Below are positions 6,052 to 21,426 of a stretch of DNA of 28,908 bases, piece after piece. The notes beneath the pieces were generated by a model. It did no database searches. It worked only from the letters and a program-made list of their open reading frames with translations, and had not been told where the DNA came from. The DNA is taken from the NCBI GenBank assembly GCA_005191425.1, contig SUPR01000040.1, positions 1 to 28,908 of the forward strand, written 5' to 3'. A program made the position numbers and the translations under genes. Origin of the DNA: Candidatus Helarchaeota ASGARD archaeon Hel_GB_B. GTDB lineage: Archaea > Asgardarchaeota > Lokiarchaeia > Helarchaeales > HEL-GB-B. Positions within the stretch are counted from its first letter, which is position 1; each line of letters opens with the position of its first letter.

Positions 6052-6384
6052 TTATTTCTTTGCTACCACCTCCTCTAAATCCAAATAGGAATTATTTATA
6101 ATTTCATTAAAAAGTTTTATATCGAAATCAGGACGTAATATAAATAATTTTCCATATTTAATGTGATTTACAAAAACAATGTTTGCTTGTTCTAGTAATT
6201 TTAAATGGTGTTTAATATTTCTATAGGACATTTTAAGTTTGGTAGACAATTGGTTAGTATTATATGGTCTTTCAAGAAGCAAATTAACTATTTTAATTCT
6301 TGTAATACCTCCGCTACGTCCAAATAGCCACCAATATTGACTTGTAGTTCCTAAATCATTATGATTTTCGGCTAATTTATTCAT
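6052..6384 (-). CDS. ArsR-like winged helix-turn-helix transcriptional regulator
   Basis: WWLFGRSGGITRIKIVNLLLERPYNTNQLSTKLKMSYRNIKHHLKLL...YGKLF matches the archaeal ArsR-like wHTH pattern. GAGGA RBS 6 nt upstream. Confidence 0.85.
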   Translation of the reverse strand: MNKLAENHNDLGTTSQYWWLFGRSGGITRIKIVNLLLERPYNTNQLSTKLKMSYRNIKHHLKLLEQANIVFVNHIKYGKLFILRPDFDIKLFNEIINNSYLDLEEVVAKK

Positions 6385-6665
6385 GTGAGTTCCTTCTTTT
6401 TTTCTATTTCAAGGTTTTTTAAGATAATTTTAATTTTTTAAAAATTTTATAAGATATAAATTTGAATTATATTTCTAAAAATAAATACCCTTAATAAAAT
6501 AAAATTAATTTTGGAAATTTTCCCGAATTTTTTTTTAAAATTAATAAAAGAAATATTTTACATTATTAAAAGAATTATTACTAAATTGTTATGAATATTT
6601 GAACATGAGCAAAAAAATAATTTTATTCCCCTATGAGGAGAAAAAAATGATGAGTAATCAAAAAT

Positions 6666-7739
6666 TTATAATTTCAATTTTTCTTTTACCTTGTCGGAGA
6701 TTTCTTTAATAATGTCATTAGAATAATCTTCGATTCTACCTTCATCAGTAAAAGTAGAGATTTTTGGATCTAAAGGTATTTTTCCCAGAAAATTTAGGTT
6801 GTATAGTTCAGCTACTTTGGCCCCTTGGGGTGGTCCGTAAAGTTCAATTTCTTTATTACAATATGGGCATACAAGATGGCTCATATTTTCCACAAGCCCG
6901 AATATTGGGACGTTCATGATTTTAGCCATATTAATTCCTTTTTCTACGATCATTGCAGCAAGATCTTGTGGTGTAGACACAAAAATTATACCATCAACTG
7001 GATACGATTGATATATAGTTAAATGAGTGTCTGAAGTTCCGGGTGGGAGGTCTAAGACTAAAATATCAAGAGGACCCCAATCTACTCGTTCGTAGAATTC
7101 TTGTAGAATTTTGTTAATGAGCGGTCCACGCCAAAGGACAGGGTTGGTTTCTTCAGGTAATAATAAGTTCATAGAAATAATTTTAATTCCATTTTTACTT
7201 TGGACAGGAATAATTTTATCGGCAATAACAATAGGCCGCTCTCTGAGGCCAAAAAATTTAGCTATTGAAGATCCAGTGATATCTGCATCAAGGATTCCAA
7301 CGCTCATACCACTTCTTCTTAAATATGAAGCTAGAATTGAGGAAACAAAAGATTTACCTACACCGCCTTTTCCAGAGGTAACAACGATAATATTTTTAAG
7401 TTGTTGTTTACCGAATTTTGGTATCATACTAGCAGAAATCTTTTTTTCTTCTTCAGGAGTTAGTTTTTTCATAAATTCATTGTGCTCTTGTGGTGTCATT
7501 TTAACAAAGTTCACTTCTACATCGTCCAAATTTAATTTATCTTTAAGATAAAGAATTGTGTGTGCTTTGATATCTTCATTGGACTGGTAATCAAGAGCAA
7601 GTGTTTTAAAAGTAATTTTTATCTTTTTATCGTCAATTATTTCTAAATTTTTAACTAAATCTAAATCTGCTAGACTTTTATTAAGTCCTGGAAACATTAC
7701 ATTTTTTAATGTAGTAATTACTTCAGTTTTATTTACCAT
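6666..7739 (-). CDS. mrp: Mrp/NBP35 (ApbC) Fe-S cluster carrier ATPase with N-terminal DUF59-like domain
   Basis: Deviant Walker A SGKGGVGKS, LDADITGSS, LWRGP, DLPPGTSD, VSTPQ and ENMSHLVCPYC. The N-terminal LKNVMFPGLNKSLADLDLV is typical of DUF59. Confidence 0.93.
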   Translation of the reverse strand: MVNKTEVITTLKNVMFPGLNKSLADLDLVKNLEIIDDKKIKITFKTLALDYQSNEDIKAHTILYLKDKLNLDDVEVNFVKMTPQEHNEFMKKLTPEEEKKISASMIPKFGKQQLKNIIVVTSGKGGVGKSFVSSILASYLRRSGMSVGILDADITGSSIAKFFGLRERPIVIADKIIPVQSKNGIKIISMNLLLPEETNPVLWRGPLINKILQEFYERVDWGPLDILVLDLPPGTSDTHLTIYQSYPVDGIIFVSTPQDLAAMIVEKGINMAKIMNVPIFGLVENMSHLVCPYCNKEIELYGPPQGAKVAELYNLNFLGKIPLDPKISTFTDEGRIEDYSNDIIKEISDKVKEKLKL

Positions 7740-7918
7740 AACTGTTCACATCTAGTCAAAATTAATAATTCCATTATTATTAATTAAGAAAATTTATCAT
7801 AGTATTTATTATTAGTAGAAAAAAATGCTTATTAAGATTTTTTTGGTAATTCACAAAAATTTGAATTTATTCATATATAAAAGATATTTAGAAAAAAATC
7901 AATTAACAGTGTAATAAA

Positions 7919-13198: not shown

Positions 13199-14104
13199 TT
13201 AATTCATAATAAATTTTTGGATTTTATTAAAGATATCGCGATACGCTTTAACGGCAATAGAATCAGGGGCGTATTCTATAACAGATAGACCTTCAGCTAC
13301 AGCATAAGCAATTGAATTATCAAGTGGTATATTTCCTAGATGAAAAAGATTATTTTGTTCAAGAAATTCAATAATTTTATTTGTGCTTTCGGGGAATAAG
13401 TCAGCTTTATTGATTATTACGCCAATATGTTTAGTAAAATTATATGCCAATTGTAAGACTCTTTTTAGATCGTGGACTGCAGCAGGGTTTGGTTCGGTTA
13501 ATAAAATTATATAATCAGAATCAGTTAGAGATGCAATTACAGGACACCCTACACCAGGTGGGCCATCACTTAATAGGATATCAGGCAAAGTAGACTCTTG
13601 TTTGGCTATATTATTAGCCCACATTTTTGCTTCAGCTACTATTTTTCCGCTATTACCTTCCCCAATTTTTATTTTACCAGTTATTACAGTAAAACCATAT
13701 TTGGAGTGTTGCTTTAATAAATCACCGGTTTTAATGGGTCTGAGTTCTATACAGTTTTCAGGGCAAACGATTTCACAAACTCCGCACCCTTCGCAGAATA
13801 GATCTGAAAAAATTGGATGTTTATTATCTGCATCCCATTTGATTGCGTTAGACGGGCATTTTTCATAACATGTTTTACAACCAATACAACAATCATTGTT
13901 TGATAGAAATGCTTTTTCAGCTGAAAAAATGTCTTTTGTTTCTAGTTCTTCGCATTTTAGTACAATAGCTAAATTAGGAGCATCAACATCACAATCGACT
14001 AATATTATATCTTTACCTGCCTCTTTGAATAAAAGGGCCAGTGTAGCAGTTGTGGTAGTTTTCCCAACTCCACCTTTTCCACTTGCAATTGTAATTTTTT
14101 TCAT
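13199..14104 (-). CDS. MinD-superfamily P-loop ATPase with inserted 2x[4Fe-4S] ferredoxin domain
   Basis: SGKGGVGKTT, DCDVDAPNL, CIGCKTCYEKCP, CEGCGVCEIVCP, DGPPGVGCPV and TEP. Overlaps the upstream paralog by 4 bp (ATGA). Confidence 0.93.
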   Translation of the reverse strand: MKKITIASGKGGVGKTTTTATLALLFKEAGKDIILVDCDVDAPNLAIVLKCEELETKDIFSAEKAFLSNNDCCIGCKTCYEKCPSNAIKWDADNKHPIFSDLFCEGCGVCEIVCPENCIELRPIKTGDLLKQHSKYGFTVITGKIKIGEGNSGKIVAEAKMWANNIAKQESTLPDILLSDGPPGVGCPVIASLTDSDYIILLTEPNPAAVHDLKRVLQLAYNFTKHIGVIINKADLFPESTNKIIEFLEQNNLFHLGNIPLDNSIAYAVAEGLSVIEYAPDSIAVKAYRDIFNKIQKFIMN

Positions 14105-15036
14105 TCTTTTTTTAACTCCCCTTTTAATTTATTGAAAATTTGAATATAAGATTTTGACCCTACTGAATCTGGAAATTCTTCTATTACAGGTACTCCTTTT
14201 GCATATGCAACTTGAATGCTTTTATCTAATGGTATTTGCCCGATTATTGGGACTGAATATTCTTCACTTAATTTTTCAATTAAATCATGTCTATTAGTCA
14301 TATCTGAGCGGTTTAGAATAATATACGATTTAATAGGATAATCAATTACTTTTACAAGTTCTAAAATTCTTTTTAAATCAAACATGCCATAAAGCGTTGG
14401 CTCTGTGACATATAAAACAATTTTTGATCCAAAAAGAGAATAAAATACATCGCAATGTGCTCCAGGTGCTGTATCAATTATGATGCTATCGTAATTATTT
14501 TCTTTAATTTTTTTAAGAGCATATATTTTTTCTTGTTTAACTATTTCAGATGAATTTGGTTCTCCAACTTTTAATCTACCAACTATAATATCTATTCCAT
14601 AATTAGACCCTTCAAGTAATGCTCCAATTTCCTTAAAACCTGAATCGATGGCACCTACAGGGCAAATAATTTGACATGCTGCACAGCCCTCGCAGATTTC
14701 AGGAAATAATAGAGGCTTTTTGTCAGGGATATGTAAAATTGCATGGGGTTTACAAACATCATGACATTTTTTACATGAAATACATTTATCGTTAAATTCT
14801 GGAACAAAGATATTAATTTTCTTAATTTCTTTTAATTCAATGTTCATTAGAATTGAAACATTTGGATTATCAACATCACAATCTATAATTAAAACTTTTT
14901 TTCCTAATTTACTTAACATGTATGCTATATTTACAGCAACAGTTGTTTTTCCAGTGCCACCTTTTCCGCCAGTACACCCAATTATGTCTTTATCTAATTC
15001 AAAAAATTCAAACCAATCTACTCTTTCATCTACCAT
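14101..15036 (-). CDS. MinD-superfamily P-loop ATPase with inserted 2x[4Fe-4S] ferredoxin domain (second paralog)
   Basis: GGKGGTGKTT, DCDVDNPNV, CISCKKCHDVC, CEGCAACQIICP, DTAPGAHC and VTEPT. Confidence 0.93.
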   Translation of the reverse strand: MVDERVDWFEFFELDKDIIGCTGGKGGTGKTTVAVNIAYMLSKLGKKVLIIDCDVDNPNVSILMNIELKEIKKINIFVPEFNDKCISCKKCHDVCKPHAILHIPDKKPLLFPEICEGCAACQIICPVGAIDSGFKEIGALLEGSNYGIDIIVGRLKVGEPNSSEIVKQEKIYALKKIKENNYDSIIIDTAPGAHCDVFYSLFGSKIVLYVTEPTLYGMFDLKRILELVKVIDYPIKSYIILNRSDMTNRHDLIEKLSEEYSVPIIGQIPLDKSIQVAYAKGVPVIEEFPDSVGSKSYIQIFNKLKGELKKE

Positions 15037-15153
15037 AAGTAATACCCATAAAATATATTAAAAAAATATGAATTAAGTTCTTGTACAAATTTTTAGAATT
15101 ATTTATTAAAATTATTTAAATTTTATTATTGATATTTTTTAGAACTACTTTAA

Positions 15154-15645
15154 TTACCATCTTCTACCGCCGCCCATTCCTCTGCCGCCACCCATTCCTC
15201 TGCCGCCACCCATTCCTCTGCCACCGCCCATTCCTCTGCCACCGCCCATTCCTCCGCCCATCCCGTAATGAGAGCTAACCGTAGAAGAACTAACTTGATT
15301 TAATGTACCTGAAAGATATTTTTTAACAGCTTCTTCAACTGTTATTCCCGATAGTCCAGAATAAATCTCAATATTTAGACTATTTAATGCATAAAATGCA
15401 TTAGGACCAACATTACCTGTAAGTATTACATTTGCACCATAATCACCGACTATTTGAGCGGCTTGAATTCCAGCGCCTCCAGAAGCCATTTTGGATGCAT
15501 TATCAACGACTTTTATGTCTGCAATTTTACCATTGACAACTTTAACAAAAGTAAAAAATGCACAACGTCCAAATCTTGGATCAATCATAGCGTTCAATCC
15601 ATTATTATTTTGTGAACTAACCGCTATTATAACATTTTTGGCCAT
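15154..15645 (-). CDS. NifB/NifX (dinitrogenase FeMo-cofactor-binding-like) family protein with Gly/Arg/Met-rich tail
   Basis: IAVSS...IDPRFGRCAFF...GGAGIQAAQ...VILTGNVGPNAFYAL is the family signature. AAGGTG RBS at 15653-15658. Confidence 0.92.
   Translation of the reverse strand: MAKNVIIAVSSQNNNGLNAMIDPRFGRCAFFTFVKVVNGKIADIKVVDNASKMASGGAGIQAAQIVGDYGANVILTGNVGPNAFYALNSLNIEIYSGLSGITVEEAVKKYLSGTLNQVSSSTVSSHYGMGGGMGGGRGMGGGRGMGGGRGMGGGRGMGGGRRW
15166..15255 (-). repeat. Five tandem 18-bp units encoding (R/G)GMGGG
   Basis: Units start at 15166, 15184, 15202, 15220 and 15238; plus-strand consensus gcc(g/a)cc(a/g)cccattcctct. GC-rich against the AT-rich background. Confidence 0.95.
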
Positions 15646-15647
15646 AT

Positions 15648-16097
15648 TTAACCACCTTTCTTTTTATAATTTTTAATTTTTTTCTTAATTTCTTTAATTT
15701 GATTTTTTAATTCTTCAATATCCTCTTTTTTGGATAAATGATCATCTCCACCAATATAAGCTCCGCATTCGCTACAATAATAAGAATTTGGATATAAACT
15801 AGCGCCACAATTATGACAGAACTTAACTTCGCTTTTTTCCTTTTTGTATAATGGTTCAGTAGTATTTTGTTTTGAATTTTTCTGTATTTTTTGAATCTCT
15901 GAAAAATTTACAATTTTATTATCGCTATTTCTTTTATAAAATGCATTAGGGCCATATCCACACCTGCATGGTCCGACATAAGAATATCCTCGAATAGTTC
16001 TTTTAGTATTGTAAGTAAAATTATTAAATCTACTATTAGTCAAATTATTATTACTGTTATTGTTGAAATATCTCCATCTACAATATCTATTTCTCAT
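15648..16097 (-). CDS. DUF5320-like protein with double zinc ribbon and C-terminal coiled coil
   Basis: YVGPCRCGYGPNAFY motif, CHNC...CSEC zinc ribbon, and coiled coil EELKNQIKEIKKKI. Stop is 2 bp from the nifX-like start. Confidence 0.75.
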   Translation of the reverse strand: MRNRYCRWRYFNNNSNNNLTNSRFNNFTYNTKRTIRGYSYVGPCRCGYGPNAFYKRNSDNKIVNFSEIQKIQKNSKQNTTEPLYKKEKSEVKFCHNCGASLYPNSYYCSECGAYIGGDDHLSKKEDIEELKNQIKEIKKKIKNYKKKGG

Positions 16098-16765: not shown

Positions 16766-17767
16766 CTATAATGTCCATTTACCGCATCTATCGCCCCATC
16801 TGGCTATAATTGTCCCGTCATCTTGTTCTACATATGTAATTTCACATTGATTTGGGCAGTCGGTACAATTAAAAGCTTTTGGAGTGAATTTCATCTCACC
16901 CACATTAAAACCTTTAAATTTAGTTTTAATGTTATTTATCTCAATATATTCCCGAGCTAGCATTGCAGCGCCAATTGCGCCCATAGTGAGGAAATTCTTA
17001 TGTACTATAATTTTTTGTCCTAAATGTTTTTCAAATGCACGTCTGATTCCATCATTTGCAGCGACTCCTCCTTGAAATGTAATTGGGGGCAATAATTTTT
17101 TACCTTTACAAACATTATTTAAATAATTTCTTACCAAACTATTACATAGCCCCCAAATTATATCTTCTTTACTGTGGCCCATTTGTTGTTTATGAATCAT
17201 ATCGCTTTCAGCAAATACAGTACACCTACCAGCGATTACAACATCAGTTTTAGATCGTTTTGCATAATCGCCAAATTCTTCAATTGGAATTCCCAAACGG
17301 TGAGCTTGATGGTCTAAAAAAGACCCAGTTCCAGCTGCACAAATAGAATTCATTGCAAAATCAGTAATAATGCCATTTTCTAATAAAATCACTTTAGAGT
17401 CTTGACCACCAATTTCTAAAATTGTCCTGACACCAGGGACAAAATATGAGGCAGCAACTGCATGAGCAATTATTTCTGTCTTAGCAATATCGCCACCGAC
17501 TAAAGCTTTAGTAAGGTATCGAGCAGATCCAGTAGTTCCAACTGCACGTATTTGGGACTCATAATCTATGAAATCGTTCTGCATTTCTTTAAATCCATCT
17601 TGTACCGATTTGATAGGTGAGCCATGAGACCTGGCCCAAGTGCTATATATTAATTCCATATTGTCATTTATAATAGCAAATTTAGTCGATACACTACCTA
17701 CATCAATACCTAAATATAAATTATCATTTTTATCAATTTCAGCTTCTCTATTTTCTGCCATTACCAT
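16766..17767 (-). CDS. ATP-dependent CoA-enzyme activase (HgdC/BadG-type, BcrAD_BadFG family) with PlsA-type Cys-rich C-terminal extension
   Basis: YLGIDVGSVSTK, GTTGSAR, EIGGQDSK, MNSICAAGTGSFLD, AGRCTVFAESD and FQGGVAAN, plus the tail FNCTDCPNQC...WGDRC. Confidence 0.93.
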   Translation of the reverse strand: MVMAENREAEIDKNDNLYLGIDVGSVSTKFAIINDNMELIYSTWARSHGSPIKSVQDGFKEMQNDFIDYESQIRAVGTTGSARYLTKALVGGDIAKTEIIAHAVAASYFVPGVRTILEIGGQDSKVILLENGIITDFAMNSICAAGTGSFLDHQAHRLGIPIEEFGDYAKRSKTDVVIAGRCTVFAESDMIHKQQMGHSKEDIIWGLCNSLVRNYLNNVCKGKKLLPPITFQGGVAANDGIRRAFEKHLGQKIIVHKNFLTMGAIGAAMLAREYIEINNIKTKFKGFNVGEMKFTPKAFNCTDCPNQCEITYVEQDDGTIIARWGDRCGKWTL

Positions 17768-18875
17768 TGTTTTTTTTCTCCTTTTTATTTTTTAGAAGAT
17801 CAACATAACTTTCTAATCTTGTTATAAGTCCGGCTTCTCCAGAATGCTCATCAAAACCAAAAAATATTGGAGGGATATCAAAATATTTATTGCCGTACCA
17901 TTTTGTCAGAATAGACTTTGCAGTAATTTCTGGCATACATGTGAATGGATATATATGTACAAAGCCATCAAAACCTCTTTGTGCATAATCAATATATTCG
18001 CCCATAACCCAGAATGCTTCGCCACCAATATCCATCTGGAGACCGCCTATATTTTTTTGAGATTTATTTAAATATTCTAAATATTTTCGATGAAAATTAA
18101 CATGAAATTTATGTTTAATCCAATCATATAAACTAAGATTCATATGAACTTCACACCCCAATTCGCCCAATTTTCTTTTTATATCATGATTTACAAAAGG
18201 ATCAAGGGTTACTTGAATCTCACCACTTAAACCGACCTTTAAAATTTCATTATTATCCCGTTTATTAATTTCAATTTTATCAAATTCGTTTTTAATTCTT
18301 TTTCGGAGTTTATTTAATTCGTTAAAAGTATTTGCATCATCAATTAATTGAATACATTTATTGAGAGTGTGTGTAGTATCACCTTTATTGACCTCATAGC
18401 ACCTGATTTTTCCCTCTAATTTTTCCACGGTTTGAATTAATTGAGATTTCATTAGAAATAATCTAGCTGTACGAAAAATTCTAAAATAATTTAATAAAGA
18501 TTTGTCTTCAGATAATGCTTTTAATAATTTAATCCATTTAAAATCAAGTAAATCTCCTTGGGGTAAGTAATACATTTTAAAATCATAGCCTAGATCTCTT
18601 AAAATGCGTTCTTGGACGGCATAATAAAAGCCAAACCGACAAGGGCCACAATCAGTTGCCATAACTAGATTATCTACGCCCTCATCAAGGGCTTCAATAA
18701 AATTCGATAAAGTAACTTTGAAAGGAAAACAGACCCATTCTGGACTATGTTTTAGTCCTGCATCTAATTGTTTTACATTATTAGGATCAGGGAGGTAGAC
18801 TTCAGCACCAACTCCTGTGCATAGAACTTTAAAGGCAGGCCAGCAATTGCCCATATGAGGAAATGTAACCTTCAA
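17748..18875 (-). CDS. 2-hydroxyacyl-CoA dehydratase/reductase-like subunit (COG3581-type; PlsR-like reduction/dehydration domain)
   Basis: PEWVCFPFKVTL, TDCGPCRFGFY, PFTCMPE and FDEHSGEAGLITRLESYVD. TTG start with AGGTG 7 nt upstream; 4-bp overlap with the upstream gene. Confidence 0.88.
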   Translation of the reverse strand: MKVTFPHMGNCWPAFKVLCTGVGAEVYLPDPNNVKQLDAGLKHSPEWVCFPFKVTLSNFIEALDEGVDNLVMATDCGPCRFGFYYAVQERILRDLGYDFKMYYLPQGDLLDFKWIKLLKALSEDKSLLNYFRIFRTARLFLMKSQLIQTVEKLEGKIRCYEVNKGDTTHTLNKCIQLIDDANTFNELNKLRKRIKNEFDKIEINKRDNNEILKVGLSGEIQVTLDPFVNHDIKRKLGELGCEVHMNLSLYDWIKHKFHVNFHRKYLEYLNKSQKNIGGLQMDIGGEAFWVMGEYIDYAQRGFDGFVHIYPFTCMPEITAKSILTKWYGNKYFDIPPIFFGFDEHSGEAGLITRLESYVDLLKNKKEKKNNGNGRK

Positions 18876-19942
18876 AATTCAGCACCTACCTCTTTTTCTG
18901 ATTTATTTATTATTCCAATAGGCATAGTAGGTTTTTTATATATAATTCGGATATTGTTTTTCTTACGAACAATCATATCAACAAAAGCTTCGACTCGAGT
19001 AATTACACCAGCTTGACCGCTATGTTCGTCTAATACAAGCCCGATATAAGGGATTTTCAATTTTTTTGCATCGCGGGCCATGATCTCGTCAATTAACGAG
19101 TCGGGTCCACAACAAAATGAGCAAATAAAAATAATACCATCAATATCTTTTGTTTCAAATAGATAATTAACTGCGGATAATATCTCTTCCTCGTTTCCCC
19201 AATAATTCTCGAGTGTATTTGTAATAACAGTTTGATTCTTAAATATTTCAAGTGGTAAATTTTCAAGAGTTACAACATTGACCTTCATTTTATTAAGTTT
19301 ATTAATTAAGTTCATATTTATAAAAGAATCATGTACATTATAACCATGACCTATTATAGCAATTTTAGCGACATAATCGATTATTTTCTTTTTAGGTTTA
19401 AAATTTCTATTTTTGCTATTTAATACGTTTAAAGCTTTTTTAAAAGAAAGACCATCCACCATTAGTTGTCTGAAATATTTGTAGTCTTTAATAGCTTTTT
19501 CATATGCTTTTTTGATTTGCCAAGTTGATTTATGAAGTACTTTTCCTAACTTATAAGCCGATAAATACATAGGTCTTTTTTGCATATTGACTTCAAATTC
19601 GATTATTGGAGGTAAATTGTCGATGGTACCCCGTACCATATCGGGAAGGCCCAGAAATTTAGGACAAAAATAAGTGCCAATAGTTGTTGAAACATATCGT
19701 GGAACAAATAGATAGTCAATATTTTTTTCCAATAGATTCAATACATGTCCATAGTAAAGTTTTAAAGGTATACAGATTTCATCAATAGCATAGCGTCCAC
19801 CAATATCGATTATTTTGCTATTTGTTCTATCGCTGAGAACAATTTCAACCCCTAATTCTTCCAAAAATGTTTTCCAGAGAGGAAAATATTTATAATATAA
19901 TAAACTTCTTGGAATTCCAATTCTCTTTTTAATTACTATCAC
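18872..19942 (-). CDS. DUF2229-domain acyl-CoA dehydratase/activase-related subunit (COG3580-type)
   Basis: IGIPRSLLYYKYFPLWKTFLEELG, DEICIPLKLYYGH, YFCPKFLGLPD, SFCCGPDSL and LDEHSGQAGVITRVEAFVDM. Confidence 0.9.
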   Translation of the reverse strand: MIVIKKRIGIPRSLLYYKYFPLWKTFLEELGVEIVLSDRTNSKIIDIGGRYAIDEICIPLKLYYGHVLNLLEKNIDYLFVPRYVSTTIGTYFCPKFLGLPDMVRGTIDNLPPIIEFEVNMQKRPMYLSAYKLGKVLHKSTWQIKKAYEKAIKDYKYFRQLMVDGLSFKKALNVLNSKNRNFKPKKKIIDYVAKIAIIGHGYNVHDSFINMNLINKLNKMKVNVVTLENLPLEIFKNQTVITNTLENYWGNEEEILSAVNYLFETKDIDGIIFICSFCCGPDSLIDEIMARDAKKLKIPYIGLVLDEHSGQAGVITRVEAFVDMIVRKKNNIRIIYKKPTMPIGIINKSEKEVGAEF

Positions 19943-19953
19943 CTAAAATTAAT

Positions 19954-21426
19954 TCAGTCTGTGATCAATTTTGGTTTATCTCTAAAATCGTTAGTTAAAA
20001 TATCCTCTACGATTTTCTTGGAAGAATCATAGTAAAATTCTATGATATCATTAATGCGTCCAAGAACAAGGTTTAAGGGGATCAAAGGAATTTTTAAAAT
20101 ATTAGTAACTCTTGGAAATCTGACGGTCTCTATATTTAAGTCTTTAAGAGCTAATTCAATTCCTTCTAATATGGTAGAAGCAAATTCATCTGGAGTCTTA
20201 TTCTGTAGAGAATATTTAATATCGTCAGGGATAATACGATCAAAAATATTCAAAAAAGAATTTTTTAAGCGTATTTTTGATTCTATTGGATATGAATTCA
20301 TGTAGAGAAATGTAAACAATGAATAGTTTAATTGAAATGATGTCTTTAATATTTTGTTTTCGGCAATTTTTTTCAATAAATTGTTAGACCTTTCATTTAC
20401 AAAATGAATGATTATTAATCCAAGGCATTTAAGTAGGTCATTTTCTCGTCTATTGCTAAAAATCTCTAATTCTTCTTTTAGTTCGATTTCTCCATCGGTA
20501 TAAAGGTTAATCACGTCACGAAGTAGAGCTCCAATGAAACCAAGAGGGTCACGGACTATTTTTTTAACTTGATGTGATTCTAGTTTTTTGGGGAATGCTT
20601 TTTTCAGGAGTGAAATCCAATCGAAATCTACATGGACTATTTTTTTAATCCTTTCTTCTATTTTTAAGTAAATTTCATAATCTTTTTCAATGTTAGCATG
20701 AATTTCAGGTAGATTAAATACAGCAGATAAATCGGTAATATGATTACAAATTATATTGGGTCTTTCTGCGTTTAAAATTTCAGTAGAGATAAGGCCATTT
20801 GCTATTGCAATAGTATTAACATTAGCTTGCTTTGCAGCTAAAATATCAGTAAGTAGATCTCCAACGTAAATTACCTCTTTTGGGTCGTATTTTAGATCTC
20901 TAATTGCTTTTAAAATTGCTTCGGGACTTTTTGGTTTATCAATTTCGTCATTAGTTATGACAGATTTGAAATATATATCTAATTTAAATCTTTTTAGCAT
21001 TTCAATTATTTCGTCTTTTTTCTCACTAGTTAATAATGCAAGGTCAAATTTCTCGGCCAACATTGCAATTATTTGATCTGCACCACTAAAAAGTTGAGAA
21101 ACATTATTGTAACGTTTATAATTTATGTATAATTTTAGGATTAACTTTAGTTTGTCAATATAATGAAGCCCATCCATAAATTCAATTCCGTCTGATAAAG
21201 TATATGCATTTAATATAATATTTGGCATATCAGAAGAATCAATTCCCTCAATAATACTCAGTGCTTGTTCAACAGCATCATCAAGAGGATAGTTAATGTT
21301 ATATTCAGTCAGTACATCTTTAATTGCAGCTTTAATTGCAGCTGTATTATTATATAAAGTTCCATTCCAATCAAATACTATAGCTTTAGTATTTTCTAAT
21401 TTCATATTTTTTGCTAAAATTGCCAT
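19954..21426 (-). CDS. HAD-superfamily phosphatase (N-terminal ~235 aa) fused to an uncharacterised helical C-terminal domain
   Basis: Motif I VFDWNGTL (DxN variant), motif II LLTS, motif III KPKSP, motif IV YVGDLLTDILAA. AAGGTG RBS at 21435-21440. Confidence 0.88.
   Translation of the reverse strand: MAILAKNMKLENTKAIVFDWNGTLYNNTAAIKAAIKDVLTEYNINYPLDDAVEQALSIIEGIDSSDMPNIILNAYTLSDGIEFMDGLHYIDKLKLILKLYINYKRYNNVSQLFSGADQIIAMLAEKFDLALLTSEKKDEIIEMLKRFKLDIYFKSVITNDEIDKPKSPEAILKAIRDLKYDPKEVIYVGDLLTDILAAKQANVNTIAIANGLISTEILNAERPNIICNHITDLSAVFNLPEIHANIEKDYEIYLKIEERIKKIVHVDFDWISLLKKAFPKKLESHQVKKIVRDPLGFIGALLRDVINLYTDGEIELKEELEIFSNRRENDLLKCLGLIIIHFVNERSNNLLKKIAENKILKTSFQLNYSLFTFLYMNSYPIESKIRLKNSFLNIFDRIIPDDIKYSLQNKTPDEFASTILEGIELALKDLNIETVRFPRVTNILKIPLIPLNLVLGRINDIIEFYYDSSKKIVEDILTNDFRDKPKLITD

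Follow-up and report, generated by a model that had tools for sequence, protein, structure and literature searches.

On the 28,908-nucleotide contig SUPR01000040.1 of the Candidatus Helarchaeota archaeon Hel_GB_B (the window in what follows), three adjoining genes, here called S1, S2 and B, encode two paralogous catalytic subunits and a single ATPase activator (activase). Sequence comparison supports the assignment of this trio, as a split single-activase form, to the DUF2229-type (PlsA/PlsR/Ger-like) branch of the benzoyl-CoA reductase/2-hydroxyacyl-CoA dehydratase (BCR/HAD) radical enzymes. Within this branch it probably acts as an ATP-driven reductase that converts lipid esters to ethers. 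An earlier note, made from the letters of the window, had proposed a split PlsA/Ger-like reductase encoded by three separate genes at positions 16766-19942, and three co-directional open reading frames (ORFs) lie exactly there on the minus strand. S1 and S2 overlap by 4 bp, S2 and B by 20 bp. The proposal stands with respect to the DUF2229 branch and at the level of architecture; the Ger-like product that it derived from the single activase does not stand, as discussed below. The host metagenome-assembled genome (MAG) comprises 3.54 Mb with about 28% G+C and is 93.7% complete.

In Pfam, S1 matches DUF2229 (PF09989) over profile positions 1-217 of 218 (E 1e-54). The match of S1 to HGD-D (PF06050) is confined to the C-terminus and covers positions 266-342 of 342, i.e. 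77 residues (E 6e-7). S2 shows a weak N-terminal match to DUF2229 (E 4.7e-9) and none to HGD-D; full-length HGD-D domains in both subunits were not found, nor was any NCBIfam model naming S1 or S2. The two subunits are paralogous over their whole length (BLASTP E 4e-15; hhalign probability 99.9, E 9.6e-36). The translation of S1 contains the motifs CIPLK, CPKF, FCCGPD and DEHSGQAGVITRVEAFVD, that of S2 the motifs CFPFK, GPCRFG, FTCMPE and DEHSGEAGLITRLESYVD. Thus the Cys motifs and the common C-terminal DEHSGxAG motif quoted in the earlier note are all present, and they are conserved in homologs. Among homologs from Asgard, other archaeal and bacterial loci together with 32 fused proteins, C57 (CxPxK), C93 (CP) and C278 (CGPD) of S1 are invariant in 51 of 51 sequences, and C49, C79 (GPCRFG) and C313 (FTCMPE) of S2 in 53 of 53. 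The C-terminal DEH.G.AG..TR.E motif is common to both families and invariant or nearly so. The conservation of these motifs is far beyond chance, and the conserved Cys residues are most simply read as predicted ligands of Fe-S clusters. The best homologs of S1 carry the labels Helarchaeota, Lokiarchaeota or Promethearchaeota; the nearest ESM Atlas clusters of S2 are DUF2229 proteins of about 365 aa from Bacillota.

B is an activase of the HgdC type. It matches BcrAD_BadFG (PF01869; Pfam E 3.4e-49) and TIGR00241 (NCBIfam, 204.8 bits with a cut-off of 125.4), and its core aligns with the solved activases MbdQ (E 1.3e-43) and HgdC (1HUX; E 1.9e-38). C143 and C182, which by homology to HgdC we take to be the ligands of the bridging cluster, are invariant in 81 of 81 sequences. 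The solved activases, 243-276 aa in length, end where the core of B ends (about residue 275), and the C-terminal tail is therefore a real extension, as the earlier note had recognized from its CxxCxxxC...RC pattern. The tail reads C-TD-C-PNQ-C ... R-C and, in a high-confidence model, forms a short helix and a three-stranded sheet; no Pfam match was obtained for it, even at E 10. Its Cys residues C301, C304, C308 and C328 occur in 18 of 18 split activases. In the fused proteins, where two activase domains (B1 and B2) are joined, the four Cys are found in 31 of 32 B2 domains, compared with 0-1 of 31 B1 domains. The four-Cys tail is a hallmark of B2 and of the split activases.

Another residue, C208, is typical of B1 (30 of 31 B1 domains, 3 of 32 B2 domains) and is present in 15 of 18 split B proteins. 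Split B thus combines a B1-type C208 with a B2-type tail, which fits an undifferentiated homodimeric activase and not a product determinant. The simplest reading of the lone HgdC-type activase is that it works as a homodimer; BB fusions would then be tethered, sub-functionalised pseudo-dimers. The trio has only one activase gene, and no B1-type partner lies nearby. The other three activases of the genome consist of the core only (264-270 aa). Two of them lie on one contig (C171), 2-4 kb from canonical HGD-D genes, and the contig of the third (C106) gave no HGD-D match.

Structure prediction places S2 in the same superfamily. The model of S2 (mean predicted local distance difference test, pLDDT, 93.5) has a fold like that of HgdB, HadC, BzdO and the double-cubane cluster protein (DCCP): in Foldseek it matches DCCP (7yyl_D), HadC (3o3m_B) and BzdO (8s02_B) with E 4e-8 to 2e-7 and template modelling (TM) scores of 0.55-0.59, and the matches including a 9g87 chain span E 4e-8 to 4e-4. 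A sequence search of the PDB with S2 returned nothing meaningful; matches came from the fold search alone. When S1 and S2 were predicted as a complex, the interface score ipSAE was 0.74, compared with 0.00 for the best of three controls. The mark set for this score is reached by 58 of 80 solved complexes and by 2 of 110 mismatched pairs, a calibration that is only rough here because custom alignments were used. At least 90% of the contacts are shared between the runs, and the partners have a pLDDT of at least 83. The predicted interface comprises residues 55-57, 91-95 and 276-280 of S1 and residues 47-49, 76-80 and 311-315 of S2, and all six invariant Cys sites fall within it. These models support a predicted S1-S2 heterodimer, although the score may reflect likeness to solved complexes, since complexes of the BCR/HAD superfamily have been solved.

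The relationship to the lipid-reducing enzymes became apparent from longer relatives of S1. These are S1-S2 fusions of about 730 aa and proteins of about 1400 aa that contain both PF01869 and PF09989. On 32 of 32 fused proteins of 1335-1507 aa, B2 (tail included), S1 and S2 map in order. The earlier note had made its proposal dependent on such collinear similarity. In the fused protein P0138, for example, B corresponds to residues 311-636, again with the tail (47% identity, E 2e-85), S1 to residues 677-986 (35%, E 1e-50) and S2 to residues 1015-1402 (25%, E 1e-28). The order S1-S2-B in the window is a permutation of the fused order B1-B2-S1-S2, in which B1 has no counterpart. B1-B2-S1-S2 is the layout published for Ger/PlsA. 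From the mapping of the fused portions onto plsA and plsR given in bioRxiv 10.64898/2026.06.23.733905 it follows that S2 corresponds to the plsR-like part, and B together with S1 to the plsA part. The only characterised relatives of DUF2229, i.e. PlsA, PlsR and Ger, act on glycerolipid esters (PMC13159169).

The second line of evidence is the genomic neighbourhood. ORF and profile scans of the window delimit a tight co-directional block on the minus strand at 25492-16587 (Table 1), and a Helarchaeales relative has the same six genes in its operon and, in addition, the small ORF. In the Lokiarchaeia family f2, PlsC genes adjoin the trio in 8 of 9 loci. Either a two-domain PlsC lies next to S1, or a one-domain PlsC lies near B, or both are present; the one-domain PlsC aligns with the third domain of the 876-aa protein of the window. 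The contiguous arrangement HAD-PlsC(2 domains)-S1-S2-B-PlsC(1 domain) is found in three f2 loci; the remaining ones are either interrupted by unrelated genes or cut off where the locus stops. One of two sampled loci of family f3 reads PlsC-PlsC-S1-S2-B, and S2-B-PlsC occurs in loci labelled Promethearchaeota, Thorarchaeota and Hodarchaeota. In the motif scan described below, adjacency to PlsC was seen in 4 of 120 loci, all of them Asgard. The HAD-type phosphatase is part of the cluster in Helarchaeales and in Lokiarchaeia f2. Stretches of the operon are contained in hydrothermal-vent and marine-sediment metagenomes from several studies; among public runs, no RNA datasets with the operon are listed. 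The adjacency of PlsC genes in Asgard archaea is indirect support for a putative activity that converts an sn-1 ester to a vinyl or alkyl ether.

Table 1. Genes and gene parts of the operon in the window (positions of the forward strand).
Feature	Position	Strand	Assignment or remark
Protein with three PlsC-type acyltransferase domains, 876 aa	22862-25492	minus	PF01553
LarA-like nickel-pincer (NPN) racemase/epimerase homolog, 460 aa	21479-22861	minus	profile scans, alignment
HAD-type phosphatase, 490 aa	19954-21426	minus	HAD is the N-terminal 240 aa
S1, catalytic subunit, 356 aa	19942-18872	minus	full DUF2229 and C-terminus of HGD-D
S2, catalytic subunit paralogous to S1, 375 aa	18875-17748	minus	plsR-like part of fused enzymes
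B, single HgdC-type activase, 333 aa	17767-16766	minus	BcrAD_BadFG, TIGR00241
B core, residues 1-275	16943-17767	minus	HgdC/BcrAD-type ATPase, C143 and C182
B tail, residues 276-333, 58 aa	16766-16942	minus	CxxCxxxC...C module
Small ORF, 63 aa	16587-16778	minus	overlaps the stop of B; candidate fourth component

Three PF01553 domains were found in the whole genome, all of them in the 876-aa protein of the operon. A profile search of the genome found neither PlsY (PF02660) nor a geranylgeranylglyceryl phosphate (GGGP) synthase of the PcrB type (PF01884), and the N-terminal domain of GpsA (PF01210) gave no match above the cut-off; given the completeness of the genome, PlsY, GpsA and GGGP synthase are to be regarded as not found rather than absent. 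A CarS-like gene (contig C113) and LarC (contig C133) are present. The profile of glycerol-1-phosphate dehydrogenase (PF13685) gave weak partial matches to four genes of about 390 aa that resemble Fe-dependent alcohol dehydrogenases.

How widespread is the split layout? An exhaustive search with S2 returned 257 clusters at E<=1e-30, mostly stand-alone proteins of about 360 aa and some S1-S2 fusions. Loci were collected with a degenerate DNA pattern for PFTCMPE. The pattern picks up split-type S2 genes alone, since the aligned motif in the fused protein used for comparison (P0138) is PFTCMPG. A true S2 homolog was present in 112 of the 120 loci obtained (L041-L160). S1, S2 and a single B of about 320-345 aa occurred together in 39 loci, S2 and B in 9, and S1 and S2 in 14. 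S2 was the sole member in 50 loci, neither S1 nor an activase lying within about 4 kb; these loci are largely labelled Gastranaerophilales, Melainabacteria or uncultured bacterium. Bacterial trios come from Bacillota (Pelotomaculum propionicicum, Desulforamulus aquiferis, Thermincola), Dehalococcoidales, Atribacterota, Syntrophorhabdus and Actinomycetota, and a trio is also present in one Heimdallarchaeota MAG. Since many anaerobic bacteria and archaea have such trios, the three-gene layout with one activase is no peculiarity of the window; it is that of a widespread subfamily. Of 201 genomes sampled from the phylum of the host, S2 was detected in 60, with 34/40 and 18/21 genomes in some families and 0/43 and 0/19 in others; S1 was found in all seven genomes of the order Helarchaeales. 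What is distinctive here is the Asgard lipid-gene context, not the split layout.

Two further observations concern relatives of the trio. In Lokiarchaeia f2, a second paralogous set lies directly beside the PlsC-linked set (L022, 10281-15141; L023, 10269-14409). It consists of a long S1 of 594-837 aa, a B and an S2 of 441-444 aa; in L022 a 977-aa activase-containing protein is encoded near this set. In the group that is nearest to the Helarchaeales S1 clade (L037/L038), a divergently oriented 532-aa B12-binding radical SAM gene (6286-7884) adjoins S1-S2-B and recalls the lipid synthases Mss and Tes. The NCBI record of L037 is labelled 'bacterium'; the same protein is found on a JGI contig (L038) together with an RNase P p30 gene. 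RNase P p30 is an archaeal/eukaryotic marker. Because the 'bacterium'-labelled protein of this nearest group is also found on a contig with an archaeal-type RNase P p30 gene, we do not claim a gene transfer from bacteria to Helarchaeales.

We propose the following mechanism, in which we infer the clusters, the homodimer, the lipid substrate and the chemistry. In the B homodimer, C143 and C182 of both chains would together coordinate a single bridging [4Fe-4S] cluster. A low-potential donor would reduce B, and ATP hydrolysis would push the electron into the clusters of S1 and S2. These two would form a heterodimer in which, as in HadBC, each subunit has a [4Fe-4S] cluster held by three Cys. The group reduced would probably be the ester carbonyl of an acyl-glycerolipid that the PlsC-type acyltransferases of the operon have produced. 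Two one-electron reductions and a dehydration would yield a 1-alkenyl (vinyl) ether, and a further reduction of the vinyl ether would yield a 1-alkyl ether. For the four-Cys tail of B, metal binding is probable, as is a role in docking or wiring B to S1. The scheme follows the chemistry proposed for PlsA/PlsR (PMC8788747; see also PMC13159169). Which of the two product types, alkenyl or alkyl, is formed cannot be read from the sequence.

Several points weigh against an ester-to-ether lipid reductase and its place in the family. Identity to the fused forms is only 33-36% for S1 and 21-29% for S2, and a tree of S1 separates the split forms from the fused ones as a clade of their own, on a long branch with 100% support in the Shimodaira-Hasegawa approximate likelihood ratio test (SH-aLRT). 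The homologs that support family membership are uncharacterised fused proteins with the published architecture, and the comparison with PlsA, PlsR and Ger themselves is one by description. The bacterial S1-S2-B trios have no consistent lipid context, and no assay of any split member was found in the literature searched. The two activation domains of the BBD layout, which is conserved in all alkyl-ether producers (PMC13159169), are not present, as the operon has one activase gene. Finally, the cultured Lokiarchaeon is stated to have archaeal lipids only (Imachi et al. 2020, as cited in PMC13400652).

The BBD layout also bears on the product. The earlier note had described Ger as an enzyme with a single activation domain and suggested on this ground that a trio with one activase may give saturated alkyl ethers rather than plasmalogens. 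The premise is reversed: Sahonero-Canavesi et al. 2022 (PMC13159169) give the layout BBDHDDH for Ger of T. maritima, in which two activation domains are present. In Bacillota, moreover, a single activation domain correlates with plasmalogens and minor alkyl ethers (PMC13274423), so that the published correlation points the other way and the suggestion fails. Ger and PlsA are currently inseparable by primary sequence (PMC13274423), and the combination of C208 with a B2-type tail fits a homodimeric activase better than a determinant of the product. It is true that the trio is related to Ger-type fused proteins, that Lokiarchaeota and Heimdallarchaeota are reported to carry Ger homologs (PMC13159169), and that an archaeon might favour saturated ethers. 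Taken together, we regard a Ger-like output dictated by the single activase as unlikely. To a similar degree we doubt that the trio performs some other ATP-driven low-potential reduction, of an acyl-phosphate, a wax ester, an isoprenoid lipid or, as with double-cubane proteins, a small molecule. The top structural match of S2 is indeed a DCCP chain, the split forms branch apart from the fused ones, the bacterial contexts are varied (a thioredoxin-reductase-like gene in L040, the B12-radical-SAM gene in L037), and S2 stands alone in 50 of 120 motif loci. Yet the three invariant Cys per subunit resemble HadBC and not DCCP, the characterised DUF2229 relatives act on glycerolipid esters, and the acyltransferase linkage in Asgard archaea points to acyl-glycerolipids. 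For the subfamily in its entirety, a reductive chemistry of another kind is conceivable.

The trio could also be a soluble enzyme of the 2-hydroxyacyl-CoA dehydratase kind, with the LarA-like racemase supplying the required enantiomer of the 2-hydroxy acid and the acyltransferases being unrelated to it. The fold and the activase are common to HadBC/HadI and HgdAB/HgdC, the LarA-like gene lies two genes upstream of the trio, LarC is encoded in the genome, and a Clostridia locus (L133) likewise has a LarA-like gene beside B, S2 and S1. However, HGD-D is vestigial, limited to the last 77 residues of S1 and lacking from S2, whereas nine canonical full-length HGD-D genes are found elsewhere in the genome, and five of these share a contig with two of the other activases. 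The PDB sequence matches to HadC and DCCP are marginal (E 0.02-0.1), and no CoA-transferase or CoA-ligase is present among the genes of the operon and its flanks that were scanned. Orthologs of the operonic LarA are restricted to some members of the order; the linkage to PlsC, unlike that to LarA, is conserved across the class Lokiarchaeia. Such a dehydratase fed by a racemase is thus less likely, and we give it little credence. A lipid reductase of the DUF2229 branch remains the interpretation that we consider probable.

The LarA-like protein of the operon aligns with the malate racemase Mar2 (E 2e-37). The positions that we take to be the catalytic His pair, the cofactor Lys and the Ni-binding His of LarA align and are conserved, whereas what is presumably the substrate-site Gln is replaced by Asp. 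Orthologs with at least 60% identity were found only in one genome of the same genus (G206) and in one genome of family f30 (G204), in both with the same spacing to S1 as in the window. In the other four genomes of the order no operonic ortholog was found, and Lokiarchaeia gave only matches of 24-31% identity. The C-terminal 250 or so residues of the HAD-type protein (window 19954-20700) have no Pfam match, even at E 10, and are absent from the HAD genes of the Lokiarchaeia clusters (254-263 aa).

The small ORF after B (63 aa in the window) has counterparts of 59-77 aa in the corresponding position in the Helarchaeales relative (52% identity, E 8e-16), in the L006/L037 group (E 1.6e-8) and in Lokiarchaeia f2 and f3, with the pattern K-[LF]-S-x2-[FL]-D ... 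IP in common. Behind B in families f6 and f28 no such ORF was observed. The ORF may encode a fourth subunit. Downstream of the operon, a block on the minus strand (13199-16097) is also conserved with the Helarchaeales relative. It encodes a Cys-rich protein of 149 aa, a protein of 163 aa with a GGGMGGGR-repeat tail, and two MinD/ParA-type ATPases bearing 4Fe-4S domains (Pfam assignment from the orthologs in L003). These proteins may serve as helpers in Fe-S maturation or electron transfer.

A bolder possibility is that the whole operon with the small ORF forms a self-contained Asgard route from fatty-acyl glycerolipids to ethers. The LarA-like enzyme would then invert C2 of glycerol phosphate or of a lyso-lipid via a keto intermediate, and this inversion would supply the backbone where no GpsA or PlsY was found. 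We consider this a long shot. If it were true, fatty-chain ether lipids could come from an archaeon, a matter of consequence for the lipid divide and eukaryogenesis.

The finding touches on the question whether Asgard archaea, to which eukaryotes are more closely related than to any other known group, make lipids other than isoprenoid glycerol-1-phosphate (G1P) lipids. PlsC, PlsY and 'Ger homologs' have been reported in Asgard genomes without pathway context (PMC6431249, PMC13159169, PMC13400652). Here the trio and PlsC-type acyltransferases are tied to each other, both physically and evolutionarily, throughout Lokiarchaeia and at further loci that carry Asgard labels. The main value of the finding is that scattered homologs become one candidate acyltransferase-reductase module that is conserved in Asgard archaea. 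In addition, a rule of thumb is corrected, in that the number of activase domains does not predict alkyl versus alkenyl products in the direction assumed. A split subfamily is defined by S1, S2 and a B2-type activase with a four-Cys tail, with the small fourth ORF in three archaeal clades.

Among known systems, Ger (T. maritima Tmari_0479, AGL49404; D. alkenivorans SHJ90043) has the same PF01869, PF09989 and PF06050 blocks as the trio and, as judged on the fused BB-DUF2229 homologs, the same B2-S1-S2 order with a four-Cys module after B2. Ger is one polypeptide with two activase domains, whereas the window has three genes in the order S1-S2-B and no B1; the separate clade of the split forms and the identities given above refer to Ger-type fused homologs, Ger itself being compared by description. 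Ger is active only under anaerobic conditions, and the operon of the window is found in metagenomes of hydrothermal vents and marine sediments. PlsA/PlsR of C. perfringens (Q8XL48/Q8XL47), likewise compared by description, is a multi-subunit enzyme like that of the window, with S2 resembling the plsR-like C-terminal portion and B and S1 the plsA portion. Unlike in PlsA, the activase is separate and encoded by the last gene instead of being fused in front of S1. In addition, the host is an archaeon, and the genes lie inside an operon with acyltransferase, HAD and LarA-like genes.

HadBC/HadI and HgdAB/HgdC (3O3M, 4EHT, 1HUX) likewise consist of two paralogous subunits and a separate homodimeric ATPase activator, and in HadBC the clusters are held by three Cys per subunit. 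The fold matches to these enzymes have TM scores of 0.56-0.60. The sequence similarity is marginal, however, and DUF2229 replaces most of HGD-D. The activase of the window has an extra four-Cys tail that HadI and HgdC lack, and there is no CoA-transferase near the trio, which lies in a lipid acyltransferase context instead. DCCP:DCCP-R (7YYL) is the best Foldseek match of S2 (E 4e-8), and B matches DCCP-R with E 2.7e-21. DCCP has six Cys in one subunit, whereas the trio has three conserved Cys per subunit and would be a heterodimer of paralogs rather than a homodimer.

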